Below, piece by piece: positions 7,051-52,353 of a DNA stretch of 64,000 nt. The notes under the pieces were generated by a model, which saw nothing but the letters and a program-made list of their open reading frames with translations, was not told where the DNA came from and made no database searches. Within the stretch, counting starts at the first letter, position 1; each line of letters starts with the position of its first letter. This DNA comes from Candidatus Woesearchaeota archaeon CG10_big_fil_rev_8_21_14_0_10_44_13. GTDB lineage: Archaea > Nanobdellota > Nanobdellia > Woesearchaeales > UBA12501. The stretch is from positions 7,464 through 71,463 of the forward strand of contig PCXZ01000003.1 in the NCBI GenBank assembly GCA_002762985.1, given 5' to 3'. The position numbers and the translations under genes are program-made.

Positions 7051-9093
7051 TTACTCCAGCGGAACCTGGCTCCAAAGCGTCCAGTCATTGCTCGGCGAAT
7101 ATGATCCGAAGACATAATAAGGCATCTGGCCCCTGCCGAAATAGGAATTCTGCACATCAGACCACCTCACTGGCGCCCCCGGCCTCACGGGGCCTGCTGC
7201 AGAATAGATAGGGGAGCCGAAAGTCTTCCATGCCTCTGTGAGCATCCTTGTCACATCCCCATAACCTTCAGAGAGATAAGCGCCAGTATATCCTCTTTTT
7301 TTCAGGTAAGCGATAGCATCTACAACGGGCATGTCACCATGTCCTGCAGGAAGGTTTGCATGGCCGTAACCGAAACCGTCTGCGATATGGATATGCCCTA
7401 TTATCCCTGCCTTGTCCATCTTCTTTATCTGCTCCATGTACCATTCGTTGAATCTCTGCGTGAACTGCGCTTCATTCTCGCCTTCATGCCTCTGGTAATA
7501 TCTCTTCCACATGCCTATGTGCTCTGTGTCGAGCGTCGCCTTTATGTGCTGTGCAGCGGCCTTTTTCGCCTGGTCCTCATTGAACCCCCTTTCCCTCATG
7601 AGCCTCTCTGCCATCCTCTGTCTCCCCATCTGGACAAGCTCTATCATCTCTTCAGGATGGCTGCCATATCCCATCTCAGGGAAGACCTGCTCAGGCGCTA
7701 CAAAGACAGGCTTCGGCAGTCTCCTTGCATTTGTCTGGTCCATCGCATATATTCCCACTTCAGCATAAGACGTTGCTGATTTCTCTTTTGCATATCTCTC
7801 TATGGGTTTTGCATGTGATTTGAACAATTCCTGCTCCTTTGCCTGCTGCTCATAACCTATTGAAGCCTGATGAGTGTGTTCTATGTGGCTCCTGTAATCC
7901 CTTATCTCTTTCTCAAGGAATTCCGAAGGAAGCTTCATATCCTTAGGCAGAATCCCATAATCCTGCTCAAATTGCCTTTTCAGCTGCCATTTGTCCTCTT
8001 CGGGTGTTGCGGCTTCGAGCTGTTTATAAAAATCAAGGGATTTCTTGAATTTTTCAAGTTTTTCCTGGAACTGCCTCATCTGCACTCCGTGGTACAATGC
8101 CCATCCTCTTGCCTGCCCTGCGTTCGTCTCTATGTTGGCGTGCAATAATGCTTCCTCGGGGGTTATCCATTCTTCCTGAGGCCTTTCCATGTTCCTCTCT
8201 TTCGCCTCTTCGACAAAATCGTCCCATACCATCTTCCTTACCCTGAACCTGCCGCTTTCAGTATCATAGACCGGCACCCTGCTTTCTCCGGTTAATTTTC
8301 TTTTCTCATAATCGATATAATCCCCTTTCTTCACCTGCACCTTCTGGCCGTTCTCGTTAAGGTATTCATAATCATCATCCGCTCTAAGCCATATGGGCCT
8401 GTAGACCTCCTGGTTCTTCCTTACCTGCTGGATCACCTGGCCGGTCCTGTCATCGACAATCCTCATTATGGCCCTCTCAGGCTCCTCCTCATAATGCTTG
8501 AATATGTATCTCCCGTACTCGTCCCTTGCCCAGGCCTGTTCTGACATTGGCCTCTGGTATTCCCCTGTATGGACGACGACTGCGCCTCCCTGAGTCACGT
8601 CTGCTGCAAAATTCACGGCCTTCTTGACCTCATTGACAAAGGCTTCCCTCTGCTCATCCACAAAGCCCCTTTCCGGCCCTGCGAAACCGCTTAGGTTGCC
8701 TATCTGTGAAGGAGTATGCACTGACGCGATCTTGATCTCGTTGGCTCTTGCCAATTCCCTGAGATCCTCCCTTTTCTGGACGCCATAGCTCTCGACACCA
8801 GTGCCGGGCTCTGAGCCTGCAGGCACTGCAGAAAGCTCGACAGAAGCGGCTCCTTTGAATATTGCTGCCTTCACTGTCTCTACGAAGGTTCCTCCTCCTG
8901 CCCTTCCTTCTGTGACTGTCTGGCCGATCTCATTCACGCCAAGGATCGGCTCCCCTCTTGTGGCTGCGCGTATAGGCCTGTTCAGATTTGTAGAACCAGT
9001 ATAGACGGCATCTGCCTCGCTGACAGAATTCGCAGCATATTCCCTGTCCATAGAACTTGAGTATGAATAAGGTTCGCGTTCATTGAATATCAT
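7051..9093 (-). CDS. Xylose isomerase-like / AP endonuclease family 2 TIM-barrel protein with large helical insertion
   Basis: Motifs SVHTP, VVVHTGE, APE, TLDTEH, HIHIAD, NLPAGHG and LSEG. Confidence 0.75.
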   Translation of the reverse strand: MIFNEREPYSYSSSMDREYAANSVSEADAVYTGSTNLNRPIRAATRGEPILGVNEIGQTVTEGRAGGGTFVETVKAAIFKGAASVELSAVPAGSEPGTGVESYGVQKREDLRELARANEIKIASVHTPSQIGNLSGFAGPERGFVDEQREAFVNEVKKAVNFAADVTQGGAVVVHTGEYQRPMSEQAWARDEYGRYIFKHYEEEPERAIMRIVDDRTGQVIQQVRKNQEVYRPIWLRADDDYEYLNENGQKVQVKKGDYIDYEKRKLTGESRVPVYDTESGRFRVRKMVWDDFVEEAKERNMERPQEEWITPEEALLHANIETNAGQARGWALYHGVQMRQFQEKLEKFKKSLDFYKQLEAATPEEDKWQLKRQFEQDYGILPKDMKLPSEFLEKEIRDYRSHIEHTHQASIGYEQQAKEQELFKSHAKPIERYAKEKSATSYAEVGIYAMDQTNARRLPKPVFVAPEQVFPEMGYGSHPEEMIELVQMGRQRMAERLMRERGFNEDQAKKAAAQHIKATLDTEHIGMWKRYYQRHEGENEAQFTQRFNEWYMEQIKKMDKAGIIGHIHIADGFGYGHANLPAGHGDMPVVDAIAYLKKRGYTGAYLSEGYGDVTRMLTEAWKTFGSPIYSAAGPVRPGAPVRWSDVQNSYFGRGQMPYYVFGSYSPSNDWTLWSQVPLE

Positions 9094-19503: not shown

Positions 19504-20040
19504 ATGGACGAAATCGAAAAGATCATAAGCCTATGGAAGTCAAATATCCTCAATCCATCCTGTTTAAAAAGCTGCGACCATCTCTGCTGCAGTAAGGACT
19601 TCAGTCTTACAGAAGAGCAGGCAAGGCTCATCTTCAGCATAGACGGGAAGATGTATTTTCCATCGGGGAAGAACGGACAGCCGCTCCTCGGGAACAATGA
19701 TGATGCACAGGACGGAAATCCCGAAGGCGATCAGGATATGATTTTCAGGACAAGATTCTCAATTGCAGAGGAATACTGCCCCATGCACAAGGAAGGGAGA
19801 TGCGGCATCTATGATAACCCTCTAAGGCCGAAAATCTGCTCGGATTTCCCGGTCTTCGCTGATGCAGGGATAAGATTGGTCGTCTATGACTCTTCATGTA
19901 GCAGGACAGAGCGGGGATCAGCATTGGCTGTCTTCTCAGAGGCGATCAGGCAGGGATACAGGGTGATAGACTGCGCTGAAGACATGGAGATAACAATAAA
20001 GGACGGCAGGATGCACAAGGGCATCATCGAAAAAAAATAA
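19504..20040 (+). CDS. YkgJ-family cysteine-cluster protein
   Basis: C..SC...CC, followed by CPM....CGIY...RPKICSDFP. Confidence 0.8.
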   Translation: MDEIEKIISLWKSNILNPSCLKSCDHLCCSKDFSLTEEQARLIFSIDGKMYFPSGKNGQPLLGNNDDAQDGNPEGDQDMIFRTRFSIAEEYCPMHKEGRCGIYDNPLRPKICSDFPVFADAGIRLVVYDSSCSRTERGSALAVFSEAIRQGYRVIDCAEDMEITIKDGRMHKGIIEKK

Positions 20041-36842: not shown

Positions 36843-38071
<1,229 letters not shown>

Positions 38072-38182: not shown

Positions 38183-38878
38183 ATGGCCAAACCAAAGCAT
38201 ATAGGGATAATCCTGGACGGCAACAGGAGATTTGCCAAAAGGCTCATGCTTGAGCCCTGGAAAGGCCATGAATTCGGCGTCGATAAGGTGAAACAGCTCC
38301 TGAAATGGTGCAAAAGGCAGGAGATAAAAGAGCTCACTCTTTATGCATTCTCAATGCAGAACTTCAACAGGCCTAAGAAGGAGTTCGATTTCATAATGGG
38401 CCATTTCACAAAAGCGTTCAATGACATAGTTGAGAACGAGGATATCCACAAGAACAAGGTGAGGATGAGGGCGTTTGGAAGGATAAATCTGCTGCCGAAA
38501 GAGGTCCAGGCAGCGATAAAACGAGCAGAGGAAGCCACAAAGGATTACAAGGGTTATTTCGTCAATGTCGCGATAGCTTATGGCGGAAGAGAGGAGATCG
38601 TAGATGCCGTCAAGAAGATCGGCAGGGCCATTGAGGACGGGAAACTCAAGCCTGAGCAGATAACAGAAGCTATGTTCCAGAAGAGCCTTTATATTGCAGA
38701 CGAGCCTGACCTGATAATAAGGACCGGCGGCGATCATAGGACTTCCAACTTCCTTGTCTGGCAGTCCAATTATTCTGAATGGATATTCCTTGAGAAGACA
38801 TGGCCTGAGTTCGAGGAAGAGGATTTAATCAAGTGCGTGGATGAGTTTGAGAAGAGGGAAAGAAGGTTCGGGAAGTAA
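38183..38878 (+). CDS. uppS: cis-prenyltransferase (polyprenyl diphosphate synthase)
   Basis: HIGIILDGNRR, YAFS..NFNR, YGGR and DLIIRTGG..RTSNFL. Confidence 0.96.
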   Translation: MAKPKHIGIILDGNRRFAKRLMLEPWKGHEFGVDKVKQLLKWCKRQEIKELTLYAFSMQNFNRPKKEFDFIMGHFTKAFNDIVENEDIHKNKVRMRAFGRINLLPKEVQAAIKRAEEATKDYKGYFVNVAIAYGGREEIVDAVKKIGRAIEDGKLKPEQITEAMFQKSLYIADEPDLIIRTGGDHRTSNFLVWQSNYSEWIFLEKTWPEFEEEDLIKCVDEFEKRERRFGK

Positions 38879-38898
38879 TTGCTGTTATCTTTGATTGT

Positions 38899-39207
38899 TC
38901 ACCCAAAAATGACCTTAAAACTCTTCGAGTCTATAACTTCTGTCCTGACTTTCCTTCCAGGTTTCAGGCCGAGCTTCTCAGGCAGCGTTATCCCTATGGA
39001 ATTGCCTATCTTTATTATCTTCCTTTCGCCGCCTATCATCTCTCTTATCTCTTTCAGCCTGCCATATTCCATGGCCTGCTCTTTTGTGAATGTAATGTGG
39101 CCGCATCCAGGGCAGACCAAGGCCTTTGTTGTGATGCTGCCTACCTTAACCATTTTCTCTGCAAAAAATTTCCCGCAATCACACCTTATCTTCCTTGCCT
39201 TTTCCAT
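38899..39207 (-). CDS. Zn-ribbon + AbrB-type antitoxin
   Basis: CDCG...CPGCG followed by RKIIKIGNSIGITLP. Confidence 0.8.
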   Translation of the reverse strand: MEKARKIRCDCGKFFAEKMVKVGSITTKALVCPGCGHITFTKEQAMEYGRLKEIREMIGGERKIIKIGNSIGITLPEKLGLKPGRKVRTEVIDSKSFKVIFG

Positions 39208-39575
39208 GCTGTTTTTACCTCAATAAACTTGTTCCTGACAATGCATACAAGGCAGTAAGTCTCATTCTCCTTACCGAAATACCTTTCAATGATGACTTTT
39301 CTCCCTCTGGAACGAATCACACTCCCTGTTTTTATAGTCTCTTCAGCCTTTTCAATCTCAATATCCCTTATCTTCCATCTATTGATGAAATGCAAGGTGT
39401 ATGTTATTGAAAATTGTCGGGGTTTAATACCTCGGACTTCAGTCCGACAATTTTCAAGACTAAAAACTCGCCTATCAAGGCGAGGAGCGTAATACCACTG
39501 CCTTTAGGCAGGGGATAGCTCCAAGCGGCGAGTTTTTATTATCTCCTTTTCGTTTGTCTTCGGCAGCCCTTCCAT
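39186..39575 (-). pseudogene. DUF4258-like putative toxin interrupted by a 135-bp palindromic element
   Basis: Removing 39408-39542 gives the continuous ORF MEGLPKTNEKEITYTLHFINRWKIRDIEIEKAEETIKTG...EVKTAWKRQGR. Confidence 0.75.
39408..39542 (+). mobile_element. Non-autonomous IS200/IS605-type palindromic element (PATE/MITE), short copy
   Basis: Preceded by TTAT and ends in TTAT. Two AATA-preceded hairpins (TCGGAC-TTCA-GTCCGA and CTGCC-TTTA-GGCAG). Homologous to 52052-52353. Confidence 0.8.
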
Positions 39576-39810
39576 ACTCTCACTTAGAACTGCAATTATA
39601 ACATAAGTTATAACTGCTATATAAATTTTTCTGTTTTGTTCTGCAATACATTCCTAGTTTATCAATGAAATTATCAATGAAAGGTTCTTTATATGGCTTT
39701 CCCGGAAAAATCCGGAGGATTTTCGGATGATAATCCTATTTTCGGAGATCTTTCAGAAGGATATAAGATTATAGATAAATTTTATAAACTCCTCTCCTAA
39801 CCTATATCCA

Positions 39811-40578
39811 ATGGCGAGTGACGGAGACCCAATCATCTATGCGGGCGCAGGATTCTTCGGAGGACTCTACCTATTCTACAAAGGTTTCACATGGCTGAAG
39901 CTGAAAAAGCTCATAGAGAACATGCCCACATCGAAGGTAAGGGCGATTGCGATGGGCCTTGTCGAGGTCTATGGCGAAGTCGTGCCATATGAGAAAAAGC
40001 TGCTCAAGAGCCCATTGCTGGACAAGGACTGCGTCTATTACTCATACTCCATCCAGGAGGAAAGAGGCTCTGGCAAGCACAGGCACTGGGTGACATTGAA
40101 GAGCGGCCGAGAGATGGTGCATTTCTATCTTAAGGACAACACAGGCGAAGTCCTTGTGGATCCTGAAGGGGCCACAGTGGACATGAAGGCAGACCTGAAC
40201 GTGACTTCATCCTTGGGCAAGGACCCTCCAGCGGCTGTCATGCAGGCCCTCAAGAGGATGAAGCTTTCCCATGACGGCTTCCTTGGGATGAACAAGACCA
40301 TGAGATACACCGAATATCTTGTAGAGCCGAAAGACAAGCTCTACATCCTTGGCGTAGCAGGCGACAATCCTTTTGTCGAGGACACAAAAGGACAGAAGAA
40401 TGAGGAGGACATAATGATACAGAAAGGGAAGCACGGTGACATATATTACCTGTCTGACAGGAATGAGAAGGAGCTGCTGAAGAGCCTGAAATGGAAATCG
40501 ATAGGAGGGGTGATAGGGGGCGCTGTCCTGTCCTTGTTCTGCCTTACCCTCATAATAGCTTATTTTGGGTTGTGGTGA
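39811..40578 (+). CDS. GIDE-domain (E3 ligase-like) membrane protein
   Basis: N- and C-terminal TM helices, PTSKVRAIAMGLVEVYG, FYLKDNTGEVLVDP and E......D.LYILG. Confidence 0.8.
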   Translation: MASDGDPIIYAGAGFFGGLYLFYKGFTWLKLKKLIENMPTSKVRAIAMGLVEVYGEVVPYEKKLLKSPLLDKDCVYYSYSIQEERGSGKHRHWVTLKSGREMVHFYLKDNTGEVLVDPEGATVDMKADLNVTSSLGKDPPAAVMQALKRMKLSHDGFLGMNKTMRYTEYLVEPKDKLYILGVAGDNPFVEDTKGQKNEEDIMIQKGKHGDIYYLSDRNEKELLKSLKWKSIGGVIGGAVLSLFCLTLIIAYFGLW

Positions 40579-41263: not shown

Positions 41264-41569
41264 TCAGATTCCCACTATGATCTCTTTTTCCTTTATCCTA
41301 AGCGTGACTTCCTTCCCTTTTTCCCATCCCAATGCATCCTCAACAGCCTTCGGTACCCTTAATATCAGATTGCTCCTTATCCTTCCTAGCCTGATCTTTA
41401 TCGCTTCTTTCTTCAGCTTATTCAGGAGAAGTATCTTCTGGGCCTGCCCAGGGTCAAAATATGTCTCGCCGCAGCCGCATCTCCAGCCATCTATCTTCGA
41501 TTGGTTGAATTTCAATCCTTTGGCAAACTTCATCCCCTTCCCGCATCTGTGGCATTTCATTTGTATCAC
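41264..41569 (-). CDS. Zn-ribbon + AbrB-type antitoxin
   Basis: CHRCG...CGCGE followed by IRSNLILRVPKAV...LG. Confidence 0.8.
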   Translation of the reverse strand: MIQMKCHRCGKGMKFAKGLKFNQSKIDGWRCGCGETYFDPGQAQKILLLNKLKKEAIKIRLGRIRSNLILRVPKAVEDALGWEKGKEVTLRIKEKEIIVGI

Positions 41570-42009: not shown

Positions 42010-42612
42010 TTACGGAGAAGGATCAAACTCTTTTTCAACAACTTCCCCTTTTGGTGATTTCTCCGAGAATATCTGCGCCTGGAACTTGTACAATTTATTA
42101 TCAATGTCCTTCCATGCGTTCTGGTCTATCCCAGCCTTCACCCCTATCTGCTGCAAGAAATCATCAGCGTCCCATTTCCATTCGACTGGCACTTGAGGCA
42201 AAAGCAATCCTGAGCCATAGATTCCCCTAATGATCAGGCCGTCCTTTCCGATCTCTATCTTCTTAAGGTATTCCTCAGGCTTATTCACTTCAATGAGCTC
42301 AGGGACAGAAAGCACAGAGACCTCGATCAGGATATCATCAAACTCTTTCTTCTGCAGGGGAGGGAATCTGGGATCCTCAAATGCCGCTGAACGCGCTGCC
42401 TCAAAGACTGCCCTGTACAATTGATGGGTCGGCTCAGGAAAACCTATGCAGCCTCTCAGCTCGCCTTCCTTTGTCAATGTCACAAAGACTCCCTGCTTCA
42501 CGGGAAAATCCTTCTTGTACTCCTCAATGCTTATCTTTTCCCTTGAGAAATGCGTTTCGATAGAATATCTGGCCAACCTTACAAGTTTCTTCCCTTGCTC
42601 AAGATTGAACAT
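42010..42612 (-). CDS. AMMECR1-domain protein (TIGR00296)
   Basis: GVFVTL...LRGCIG, AAFEDPRF, IEVSVLS, G.DGLI and GLLLPQV. Confidence 0.95.
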   Translation of the reverse strand: MFNLEQGKKLVRLARYSIETHFSREKISIEEYKKDFPVKQGVFVTLTKEGELRGCIGFPEPTHQLYRAVFEAARSAAFEDPRFPPLQKKEFDDILIEVSVLSVPELIEVNKPEEYLKKIEIGKDGLIIRGIYGSGLLLPQVPVEWKWDADDFLQQIGVKAGIDQNAWKDIDNKLYKFQAQIFSEKSPKGEVVEKEFDPSP

Positions 42613-42652
42613 ATTATTGTCTTTAAAGCGGTTTATCAATTTATATTATGGC

Positions 42653-42928
42653 CTATTTGATCTCTTTCAAGAAAGTGTTCCTGAACTTATCATTCTCTTT
42701 CTTGAGCCTTTTCACTGCGTCAAGCAAAGCTTCCTTCGGGTCCTTGCCGTTCGTCTCTATTATTATCTTAGGTGAATCTGAGGATGGATGCTCAAGGTTA
42801 TAGGCCGCTACCTTGACTTTGTCGTCATTCCACAGCTCTTTCCTTATGGCATTGCACAATGTCGAATCTTCCCCTTTCACTTCAATAACAAGCTTGTTTT
42901 TGCCTTTTTCAAGAACTTTTATTTCCAT
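42653..42928 (-). CDS. rpoL: DNA-directed RNA polymerase subunit L (Rpo11)
   Basis: GEDSTLCNAIR.EL...V..AAY..EHP. Confidence 0.92.
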   Translation of the reverse strand: MEIKVLEKGKNKLVIEVKGEDSTLCNAIRKELWNDDKVKVAAYNLEHPSSDSPKIIIETNGKDPKEALLDAVKRLKKENDKFRNTFLKEIK

Positions 42929-52051: not shown

Positions 52052-52353
52052 TGAAAATGGCGTAAGCCATTTTCTGGCGGTTTAAAGAAAATTCCGACTA
52101 AAGTCGAGATTTTCAGACTTGCGAACAAGTTCGCAAGTAATACCTCGCACTTTAGTGCGATTGCACCATTTTCAAGACTAAAAACTCGCTATCAATGCGA
52201 GGCGCGTAATACTCCGGCCAACAGAAAATCTGCGGATTTTCTTAGTTGAGTCACTTCGTTCCTCAACTTTAGGCCGGAGATAGTCACCGAGCTAAGCGAG
52301 CGTGACTATGAACATCGCAATGTTCAGTAGCTCCGAGTGCGAGTTTTTATTAT
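52052..52353 (+). mobile_element. Non-autonomous IS200/IS605-type palindromic element, expanded copy
   Basis: Same skeleton as 39408-39542 (TTAT|TGAAAAT...TAATACCTCG...ATTTTCAAGACTAAAAACTCGC...GCGTAATAC...GCGAGTTTTTATTAT) plus three hairpin insertions. Confidence 0.8.

Follow-up and report, generated by a model that had tools for sequence, protein, structure and literature searches.

The window analyzed here, that is, the whole stretch of 64,000 nucleotides (nt), covers positions 7464 to 71463 of one contig of the source genome (G000:C9:7464-71463; the genome, G000, comprises 1.5 Mb in 36 contigs), which belongs to a Woesearchaeales (DPANN) archaeon from groundwater. On its minus strand we observe a gene for a DUF4258-like toxin that is split by a non-coding sequence at 39408-39542 (Table 1). 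This sequence is very probably a non-autonomous element of the IS200/IS605 type, a palindrome-associated transposable element (PATE), which was inserted 3' of a TTAT tetranucleotide in the toxin gene and broke it. A sequence-only reading of the window, made by a model without database searches, had proposed such an element, and we weigh that proposal here against homologous proteins, related copies in other genomes, and the transposase-bearing elements of the same order. The handles G, C, and L denote genomes, their contigs, and individual loci, and positions without a handle are those of the window.

A short element splits a toxin-like gene

The minus-strand ATG at 39575 opens 11 codons of the toxin frame, which then enters the element and stops after 12 more codons. 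The 73-amino-acid (aa) fragment on the other side (39407-39189) matches the Pfam family DUF4258 (PF14076) at 24.0 bits, below the curated cut-off of 25 (E = 4.7e-5), and the full-length homologues P0003 and P0004 have a precomputed match to the same family. DUF4258 proteins are toxins of toxin-antitoxin pairs. A protein search with the fragment returned four uninterrupted homologues of 84, 84, 85, and 101 aa, which align to both pieces of the broken gene. When 39408-39542 is removed, the 11 and 73 codons join in frame to give 84 codons, so that the DUF4258-like open reading frame (ORF) is restored as the sequence-only reading had claimed. That reading would have been weakened by homologues that do not align across the junction; those of 84 to 85 aa are collinear with the rejoined frame and gap-free at this point, the closest one starting with 11 nearly identical residues. 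The uninterrupted gene of genome G015 shares the same upstream DNA and reads ATAA at the corresponding codons (reverse complement, TTAT), which, together with the collinearity of the uninterrupted homologues, indicates that the insertion was precise.

The borders of the element are also visible in independent assemblies, since contigs from three other groundwater runs cease to match the window immediately ahead of 39404 and immediately past 39542. TTAT is present before the element and at its end in both copies of the family that lie in the window, as first read from the letters, and the element itself starts with TGAAAAT and ends with TTTTTATTAT. Terminal inverted repeats are absent, with none of the nine inverted pairs in 39300-39650 joining both termini of the window copy. 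A BLAST search of the element against phage records gave no match, and Rfam models run over 38500-40500 gave chance-level matches only (best, 18.4 bits against a gathering score of 70). The plus strand of 39408-39542 is the predicted active "top" strand.

Table 1. Features of the interrupted locus and of the second family member, with window positions and the evidence for each
Feature	Position	Strand	Basis
Non-autonomous element (PATE), 135 bp	39408..39542	+	Arms, family alignment, covariance model score 163.8 bits, fold
Left cleavage/target site (C_L), TTAT, in flanking DNA; insertion target inside the toxin gene	39404..39407	+	30/32 subfamily copies
Left domain: closing arm, guide G_L, hairpin	39407..39457	+	Inverted pairs, direct repeat, covariation of helices 3-7
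Linker GAC between the domains, subfamily-specific	39458..39460	+	Other subfamilies differ
Right domain: P1, P2, guide G_R, hairpin P3	39461..39538	+	Inverted pairs, covariation
Right cleavage site (C_R), TTAT, last 4 nt of the element	39539..39542	+	32/32 subfamily copies; covaries with G_R
N-terminal 11 codons of the broken DUF4258-like toxin gene	39543..39575	-	Aligns to residues 1-11 of homologue P0003
C-terminal 73 codons and stop of the broken DUF4258-like toxin gene	39186..39407	-	PF14076 match, homologues
Downstream overlapping ORF, 102 aa, CxxC...CxxC N-terminus, outside the element	38899..39207	-	Likely antitoxin partner
Second family member, 302 bp, intergenic	52052..52353	+	TTAT at 52048-51 and at the 3' end

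Family members and distribution

The second family member in the window follows the same two-domain plan, with additional hairpin modules inserted. Elsewhere in the source genome there is another 135-bp copy with 99% identity (C21:50114-50252), along with at least eight further complete relatives that are longer or shorter (122 to 355 bp), and left or right family ends lie at seven contig edges, which indicates that these repeats break the assembly. A BLASTn search for more copies, proposed as a check on the original reading, showed that 11 of the 16 other genomes examined from the same taxonomic family carry copies. A covariance model built from 24 copies detects the family in 53 of the 151 Woesearchaeales genomes sampled (a tally that includes G000 and the unpublished genome G147), with copy numbers per genome reaching at least 20. 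A scan with a 17-nt junction motif returned at least 118 stretches, mostly chance matches in bacteria; among the matches listed, real copies are found in several Woesearchaeota/Nanoarchaeota metagenome-assembled genome (MAG) records and in "Archaeon GW2011_AR15." Copies occur in intergenic DNA in both orientations, and a bulge-helix-bulge or self-splicing intron was rejected on that ground.

For the subfamily of the window copy, element ends were placed by the complementarity of the closing arms described below, independently of the TTAT motif. This gave 34 complete hits, of which 32 were kept after those of 667 and 707 bp in bacterial records had been dropped as chance matches. TTAT precedes 30 of the 32 copies (the other two have TGAT and CTAT) and ends all 32, with unrelated flanks. 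Variable target duplications in place of a fixed TTAT, which had been named as a finding that would tell against the proposal, are thus not what the copies display. Other subfamilies have TTAT or TTAC at the equivalent positions. Judged from sequence, this is a large superfamily of IS200/IS605-type PATEs that is widespread in Woesearchaeales. No prior description was found in the Woesearchaeota or DPANN literature by a search of limited coverage, in agreement with the proposal of a new PATE family, but identical palindromes at both ends are already known from PATEs of Haloquadratum (PMC3119063).

Two tandem arrangements were also seen. At L270 (G042:C15), a family member lies directly after the TCAT terminus of the right end of an IS200-type element, and at L275 (G115:C51) a family member is inserted directly behind the terminus of another one, as expected if a right terminus can act as a target.

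A two-domain fold with closing arms

Each of the two domains is closed by a helix of its own. In the left domain, closing arm S1 pairs 39407-39416 with 39448-39457 and can be extended to 14 bp (39407-39420 with 39444-39457, 100% complementary); inside it, guide G_L (AATA, 39426-39429) is followed by two C's and then by a 6-bp hairpin (TCGGAC at 39432-39437, loop TTCA at 39438-39441, GTCCGA at 39442-39447). In the right domain, closing arm P1 (39461-39472 with 39527-39538; 12 nt, 100% complementary) encloses the 5-bp helix P2 (39484-39488 with 39518-39522), guide G_R (AATA, 39491-39494), and the 8-bp hairpin P3 (CCACTGCC at 39495-39502, loop TTTA at 39503-39506, GGCAGGGG at 39507-39514). Much of this had been noticed in the sequence-only reading: TAATAC does stand ahead of each hairpin, starting at 39425 and 39490 within an 18-nt direct repeat (78% identical), and stems do differ in step between the two window copies (TCGGAC/GTCCGA versus TCGCAC/GTGCGA, and CCGGCC../..GGCCGG in the second copy). 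The GAC linker and the arm sequences that it described are likewise present in the window copy, but GAC and the GAAAAT/TAAAAA arms are limited to the subfamily of that copy, with linkers such as TTCC, ATCC, TCCC, and GTCC in other subfamilies.

Folded as single-stranded DNA, the element reaches -35.1 kcal/mol versus -13.7 ± 2.9 kcal/mol for 200 shuffled sequences (z = -7.28; 0/200 as good), and the minimum-energy fold is the two-domain plan. Covariation was scored on a model-based alignment of 92 matches with E ≤ 1e-10 (91 distinct), from which 13 weak reverse-strand rows of a looser alignment were excluded. Across the 91 distinct copies, 92.8% of the cells in paired columns are indeed paired, versus 77.2% after shuffling (0/500 shuffles as high), with the caveat that the alignment was fitted to the model's helices, a bias in their favor; the value drops to 38 to 51% when partners are slid by one to three columns. 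Both-sided changes are seen in 40 of 46 pairs, including 10/12 in P1, 5/5 in P2, 7/8 in P3, 5/5 in the left hairpin, and every pair of the left arm, counts that do not represent independent events since the copies are kin. In the left domain, 89.7 to 96.3% of cells are paired in helices 3 to 5 and 7, and 52.1% in helix 6, which is a single pair; every pair of helices 3 to 7 shows both-sided changes. These patterns argue that the two-domain fold is under selection.

A fold of this kind might mainly serve an RNA, be it a TnpB/IscB guide-RNA scaffold made from the right end or another structured small RNA, with the DNA features being secondary. Strong multi-helix covariation with variable inserted hairpins is typical of structured RNAs, the right domain stops exactly at the element end, where a guide would start, and PATEs elsewhere often encode such guide RNAs according to one account of them (PMC10055086). 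Covariation by itself, however, does not separate DNA from RNA, and the covariation between guides and sites described in the next section is a feature of DNA cleavage. In addition, there is no Rfam family match, the TnpB zinc ribbon (PF07282) was not found in the source genome (best E = 0.21; no search for IscB was made), and TnpB is present in only one of five PATE-rich genomes. We consider it improbable that the fold is mainly there for an RNA.

Guides and cleavage sites change together

In IS608, according to the structural account of that element, recognition of the cleavage sites falls to four bases that lie 5' of each hairpin foot, and C-3 pairs with G-35 and T-4 with A-34, so that the first two positions cross, with A-2 unpaired (PMC3201880). 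In the same account, the distance to the foot is given as 19 nt for the left site, on the 5' side, and as 10 nt for the right site, on the 3' side (PMC3201880). We applied this crossed rule to the family (first guide base with second site base, second with first, fourth with fourth, and no constraint on the third); the guide/site pairs were scored as extra brackets outside the model, and the alignment was not fitted to them. The resulting evidence is covariation, not biochemistry. The sequence-only reading had AATA selecting TTAT at both ends, which covariation across subfamilies supports; the rule that emerges is the crossed one, not a plain position-by-position pairing, and for TTAT the two rules predict alike.

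We observe the guide/site classes AAxA/TTAT, AAAG/TTAC, GATA/TCAT, CATA/TGAT, and ATAG/ATAC. At the right end, where fixed columns can be compared, the rule holds in 77 of the 85 distinct copies in which both column sets are filled (AAAA/TTAT, 38; AATA/TTAT, 27; AAAG/TTAC, 11; AAAA/TTCT, 1). Of the eight copies that deviate, four belong to a TGATT class, three have degenerate guides, and one has a misaligned end. The pair between the fourth bases of guide and site is A-T in 70 copies, G-C in 11, G-T in 1, and another combination in 3; AAAG never occurs with TTAT, nor AAxA with TTAC, and the TTAC class comes from six genomes (G005, G008, G097, G109, G111, and G121). The TGATT class misfits the fixed columns, with the predicted TGAT lying one base upstream, and its site may be five bases long. 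The third guide base is free, being AATA or AAAA even inside one element, as expected from the rule because that position is unpaired.

The left register shifts by 1 to 3 nt between subfamilies, and the test at the left end was therefore whether the predicted site is found anywhere in a flank window. This is the case for 69 of 76 copies, although AT-rich DNA makes it an undemanding criterion where TTAT is concerned. By class, AAAG goes with TTAC in 6/6 copies, CATA with TGAT in 3/3, GATA with TCAT in 2/3, and ATAG with ATAC in one copy. Two independent insertions in genome G008, L235 and L236, combine a left TCAT and guide GATA with a right TTAT and guide AAAA, and it is guide base 1 and site base 2 that are changed, which is the crossed pairing of IS608. 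Neither this pattern nor the free third guide base was an input to the scoring.

These observations also bear on a very different explanation, in which the element would be a cut-and-paste miniature inverted-repeat transposable element mobilized by a DDE transposase, with TTAT as the preferred 4-bp target that is duplicated upon insertion. Formally, TTAT on both sides has the appearance of a 4-bp duplication at a fixed target, and the left end of minimal copies resembles the reverse complement of their right end (TGAAAATCTCGC versus TAAAAACTCGC). That apparent inverted repeat is mere similarity of the two closing stems, however, and the window copy has no terminal inverted repeat at all. Moreover, the flanking and terminal tetranucleotides change together with internal bases at least 20 to 28 nt away, which a duplication cannot explain, and the unlike left and right sites of L235 and L236 (TCAT and TTAT) exclude target duplication for these insertions. 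A DDE transposase is accordingly an extremely improbable mover. A reading of TTAT as the core of an IS110-type or recombinase att site was rejected as well, with flanks beyond TTAT being unconserved and the site covarying with internal guides.

Kinship with transposase-bearing elements of the order

The Y1 transposase family is present in 126 of 401 sampled genomes of the order (including the unpublished genome G328) and in 5 of 17 of the taxonomic family. The tnpA-only IS200-type elements of the order that were examined follow the same guide rule, with the canonical 10-nt spacing at the right end. Their right ends read GATA-hairpin-6 nt-TCAT (G001, G039, and G145), GAAG...TCAC (G155), or GAAA...TCAT (G004), their left ends combine TTAA with AATT (G001, G039, and the element of the source genome) or TTAT with AATA (G042), and their hairpins have 8-bp stems and TTTA loops, like the PATE. 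The guide rule and the hairpin type are thus common to the PATE and to same-order tnpA elements, so that HUH transposase ends related in these respects, whose absence would have counted against the sequence-only reading, do exist in the order. The designation as a transposase-free IS200/IS605-type element is upheld by this likeness of the subterminal hairpins (TTTA or TTCA loop), by the fixed tetranucleotides, and by the lack of terminal inverted repeats. Ends of the IS91/Helitron-like rolling-circle type were rejected, with no such gene seen and with ends that differ.

Beyond shared architecture, there is sequence kinship between PATEs and tnpA elements. The left domain of TTAC-class PATEs matches the left ends of the tnpA elements of G155 and G094 at 34 of 42 and 33 of 41 nt, closing arm included (score, 39 versus at most 21 in 200 shuffles). 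The left core of the window copy matches the left ends of G001 and G039 at 19 of 24 nt, with a score of 23 versus 22 in shuffles, which alone proves nothing. At the right end, a PATE hairpin in G001 is identical over 24/24 nt to the right hairpin of the tnpA element in the same genome, and in G145 the corresponding match is 18/19 nt.

The Y1 element of the source genome itself uses a TTAA target and an AATT guide and has a different, long compound hairpin; its right end is unassembled. The only Y1 gene of that genome lies outside the window at a contig edge (C30:45-389, within the element region G000:C30:1-610). The left end of this element is also found at the contig ends C21:1-200, C13:1-112, and C34:9806-9889, each time behind TTAA, which gives at least four copies. 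In G001, we also noted a single-hairpin mini-element of about 65 nt (L058; G001:C1, approximately 65729-65790) in which the left and right ends of that genome's IS200-type element are joined via the hairpin; the mini-element is preceded by TAA, terminates in TCAT, and resembles the 52-bp "terminal-only" PATEs of Haloquadratum.

Departures from canonical ends

Compared with IS608 of Helicobacter pylori, the family shows both likenesses and differences. Both have subterminal hairpins, a 4-nt guide on the 5' side of the foot, and crossed pairing (for IS608, PMC3201880), the left-end TTAC/AAAG pair of IS608 recurs literally in one PATE class, and inverted repeats and target duplications are absent from both. 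In each case, some 20 nt separate the hairpin from the left site on its 5' side (22 to 24 nt from the foot here, which is compatible with the 19 nt of IS608). Unlike IS608, the Woesearchaeales PATE lacks a transposase gene, resides in an archaeal host, and carries a covarying closing helix of 10 to 14 bp around each end. It also has the same guide and the same site at both ends, where IS608 has TTAC at the left and TCAA at the right, and its right guide-hairpin module looks more like a second left-type module than like a canonical right end. In longer copies, extra hairpins lie between P3 and P1, and in several copies (three in the source genome and four in G004) the left domain consists of only a plain hairpin, with no guide-hairpin.

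A number of these and other observations weigh against the assignment to the IS200/IS605 type. Between the hairpin foot and the right site there are 28 nt, and over 100 nt in longer copies, versus 10 nt in IS608 and in the local IS200-type elements; this displacement counts against a "canonical end," not against an end that "works like" that of IS200/IS605. In the folded form, the cleavage sites adjoin at the base of both arms, far from the guides, and the arms either open for catalysis or fold back. L243 and L244, two of the G004 copies without the left guide-hairpin, are identical at 193 of 196 positions and have different flanks, from which it follows that such copies have multiplied, something that the two-hairpin synapse of IS608 does not predict. 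Since the copies of the family are related, the guide/site covariation amounts to a few events, perhaps one per class, rather than 80 independent ones. The source genome has no TnpA with ends matching the PATE, and the autonomous parent that the sequence-only reading had proposed to search for did not appear among the 33 tnpA loci of the order scanned with the covariance model, none of which has a tnpA flanked by two-arm ends; the identity of the mobilizing transposase is therefore inferred. A Y1 match is found in 26 of the 52 other PATE-positive genomes, a figure that is weak because these are incomplete MAGs. Finally, the contigs of four DNA runs contain neither empty-site nor joint contigs across the element; contigs lose rare variants, so that this absence is no evidence against excision.

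The missing Y1 matches in 26 of those 52 genomes could also mean that the ends are IS200/IS605-like and the mover is a non-canonical enzyme, such as a domesticated, RAYT-like tyrosine transposase of the repetitive extragenic palindrome (REP) type or another HUH nuclease. The mosaic of hairpin modules does recall arrays of REPs and bacterial interspersed mosaic elements, and AGTAG and ATAG motifs stand ahead of several inserted hairpins. On the other hand, MAGs are incomplete and insertion sequences often remain unassembled in them, the tnpA elements of the same genomes have an identical guide rule and hairpin type, and no RAYT-like single-copy gene flanked by repeats was seen, although no specific search for one was made. 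We regard a non-canonical mover as unlikely.

Proposed mechanism

For a PATE of the IS200/IS605 type, the most likely mechanism would be as follows. A Y1 (HUH) TnpA, supplied in trans, would bind both subterminal hairpins on the single-stranded plus strand, and the guides AATA (39426-39429 and 39491-39494) would pair with TTAT by the crossed rule of IS608. Cleavage would then follow position 39407, on the 3' side of the flanking TTAT, and position 39542, on the 3' side of the terminal TTAT, upon which the element would leave as a single-stranded circle, the donor would be resealed exactly, and the circle could re-enter 3' of another TTAT. Insertion of this type would be strand-specific, into the template of the lagging strand; the source genome is split into 36 contigs, and closed genomes of the order hold too few copies to reveal such a preference. 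As a guess, the arms might form a two-arm junction at whose base the two identical cleavage sites meet, and might give the excised circle the shape of a rod.

A bolder version of this scheme, which we put forward tentatively and hold to be possible but rather doubtful, is that the PATE is a minimal self-organizing HUH substrate, in which the arms juxtapose the sites, the circle is a viroid-like rod with a TnpA-binding hairpin at each tip, and one guide-hairpin is perhaps enough. Because both sites are identical, a single guide-hairpin module may process both ends, and this would explain the spread of copies without the left guide-hairpin to new TTAT sites. In IS608, both hairpins are needed for a stable synapse, as stated in the work on that element (PMC3201880).

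Relation to other non-autonomous elements

High-copy palindromic non-coding elements that are tied to a Y1 HUH enzyme and are often hairpin mosaics are also known as REPs or REPINs, accompanied by RAYT (TnpA-REP). A REP consists of one hairpin, about 35 nt long, that carries a conserved tetranucleotide on its 5' side and lies beside a single-copy domesticated gene. In the Woesearchaeales PATEs, in contrast, both the left and the right end are defined, the target is fixed, and insertion interrupts a gene with precision.

The PATEs of Haloquadratum walsbyi (e.g., HqIRS46) are described as short non-coding relatives of IS605-type elements without inverted terminal repeats or duplications (PMC3119063), and their near-terminal palindromes are related to those of transposase-bearing elements (PMC3119063). 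According to the same description, some have the same palindrome at both ends, with a 22-bp exact repeat in HqIRS46 (PMC3119063), and small mobile repeats insert in or near the palindromes (PMC3119063), a place taken here by the module of about 57 nt described below. They differ in belonging to haloarchaea rather than DPANN, in a comparison made by description and not by sequence, and what is described of them includes neither closing arms that join each terminal region to a stretch inward of the hairpin nor a natural series of guide/site switches (PMC3119063). The PATE-like elements of Geobacillus stearothermophilus are reported as gene-free, as sharing their ends with a resident tnpA element, and as presumably mobilized in trans (PMC10055086). 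Unlike the present family, they often encode TnpB guide RNAs in that report (PMC10055086), and no TnpB was found in the source genome; moreover, the ends of the Woesearchaeales PATEs are not fully shared with any examined tnpA element. We therefore regard the present elements as a variant among PATEs: a DPANN superfamily that is very widespread, has closing arms and a right site displaced from its hairpin, uses a single guide at both ends, and switches guides and sites in a natural series.

Nested modules, other repeats, and neighboring genes

A module of about 57 nt (hairpin, AGAC, hairpin) lies at 52085-52143 inside the second family member of the window, between ..TTTAA and TAATACC... It recurs in the source genome at C16 (approximately 56808), C27 (approximately 42943), and C30 (approximately 8709 and 29253), with five matches to a strict pattern, nested in three family members and standing alone at two places, and in other genomes its insertion point in the right domain is a different one. 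The module has the look of a mobile element in its own right, still smaller than the PATEs and aimed at them, and recalls the SMR-A repeats of Haloquadratum. More hairpin modules are found at 52219-52330, in the loop region of the right hairpin and between P3 and P2 of longer copies. The inserted modules of longer copies have short AGTAG/ATAG and TAT spacers between stems and recur in varied combinations across copies.

At least three other repeat families of approximately 80 to 100 nt are common to many contig ends of the source genome, for example, at the end of C1, the starts of C14 and C15, the end of C28, and the start of C31; at the start of C2, the end of C5, the starts of C8 and C19, and the ends of C26 and C32; and at the starts of C4, C9, and C17 and the end of C25. 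Short two-hairpin stretches starting ..CTGAAAATC.., picked up by a two-stem script at G000:C11 (approximately 42540-42700) and C21 (approximately 19790-19900), are not members of the PATE family.

Next to the interrupted toxin gene, the ORF at 38899-39207 overlaps the toxin stop and is likely the antitoxin partner; it has no Pfam match below E = 0.01. A similar ORF 2 kb from the interrupted pair (41264-41569, minus strand) has a zinc ribbon and resembles MazE/AbrB-type antitoxins (MazE_antitoxin, PF04014; 26.4 bits). The minus-strand ORF at 36965-38047 resembles glyceraldehyde-3-phosphate dehydrogenase and would have a lysine-rich N-terminal extension of approximately 26 residues if its first ATG were used, which may be a wrong start.

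Implications

Excision in the IS200/IS605 family is called precise in a treatment of that family (PMC5027513). Re-activation of the toxin through scarless excision, as suggested in the sequence-only reading, is plausible and possible in principle, and an insertion that could in principle leave a toxin gene scarlessly would make a candidate for a reversible switch. Support from a TnpA with matching ends or from an empty-site contig was looked for in the source genome and in the contigs of the four runs, respectively, and was not found.

For the IS200/IS605 family, the five guide/site classes offer a natural test, in uncultured archaea, of a rule that has hitherto rested on crystal structures and on engineered IS608. 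Since the five classes and the two insertions with unlike sites obey that rule, the cleavage and target specificity of such elements could be deduced from their sequence and might even be reprogrammed. Three features depart from the canonical mechanism in ways open to experiment, namely the closing arms, the remote right site, and the copies with one hairpin, and if a single guide-hairpin is indeed sufficient, this would be a one-hairpin mode of single-strand transposition that is not described for IS608. For the DPANN Woesearchaeales themselves, the family is an abundant mobile repeat that splits both assemblies and genes in very small genomes.

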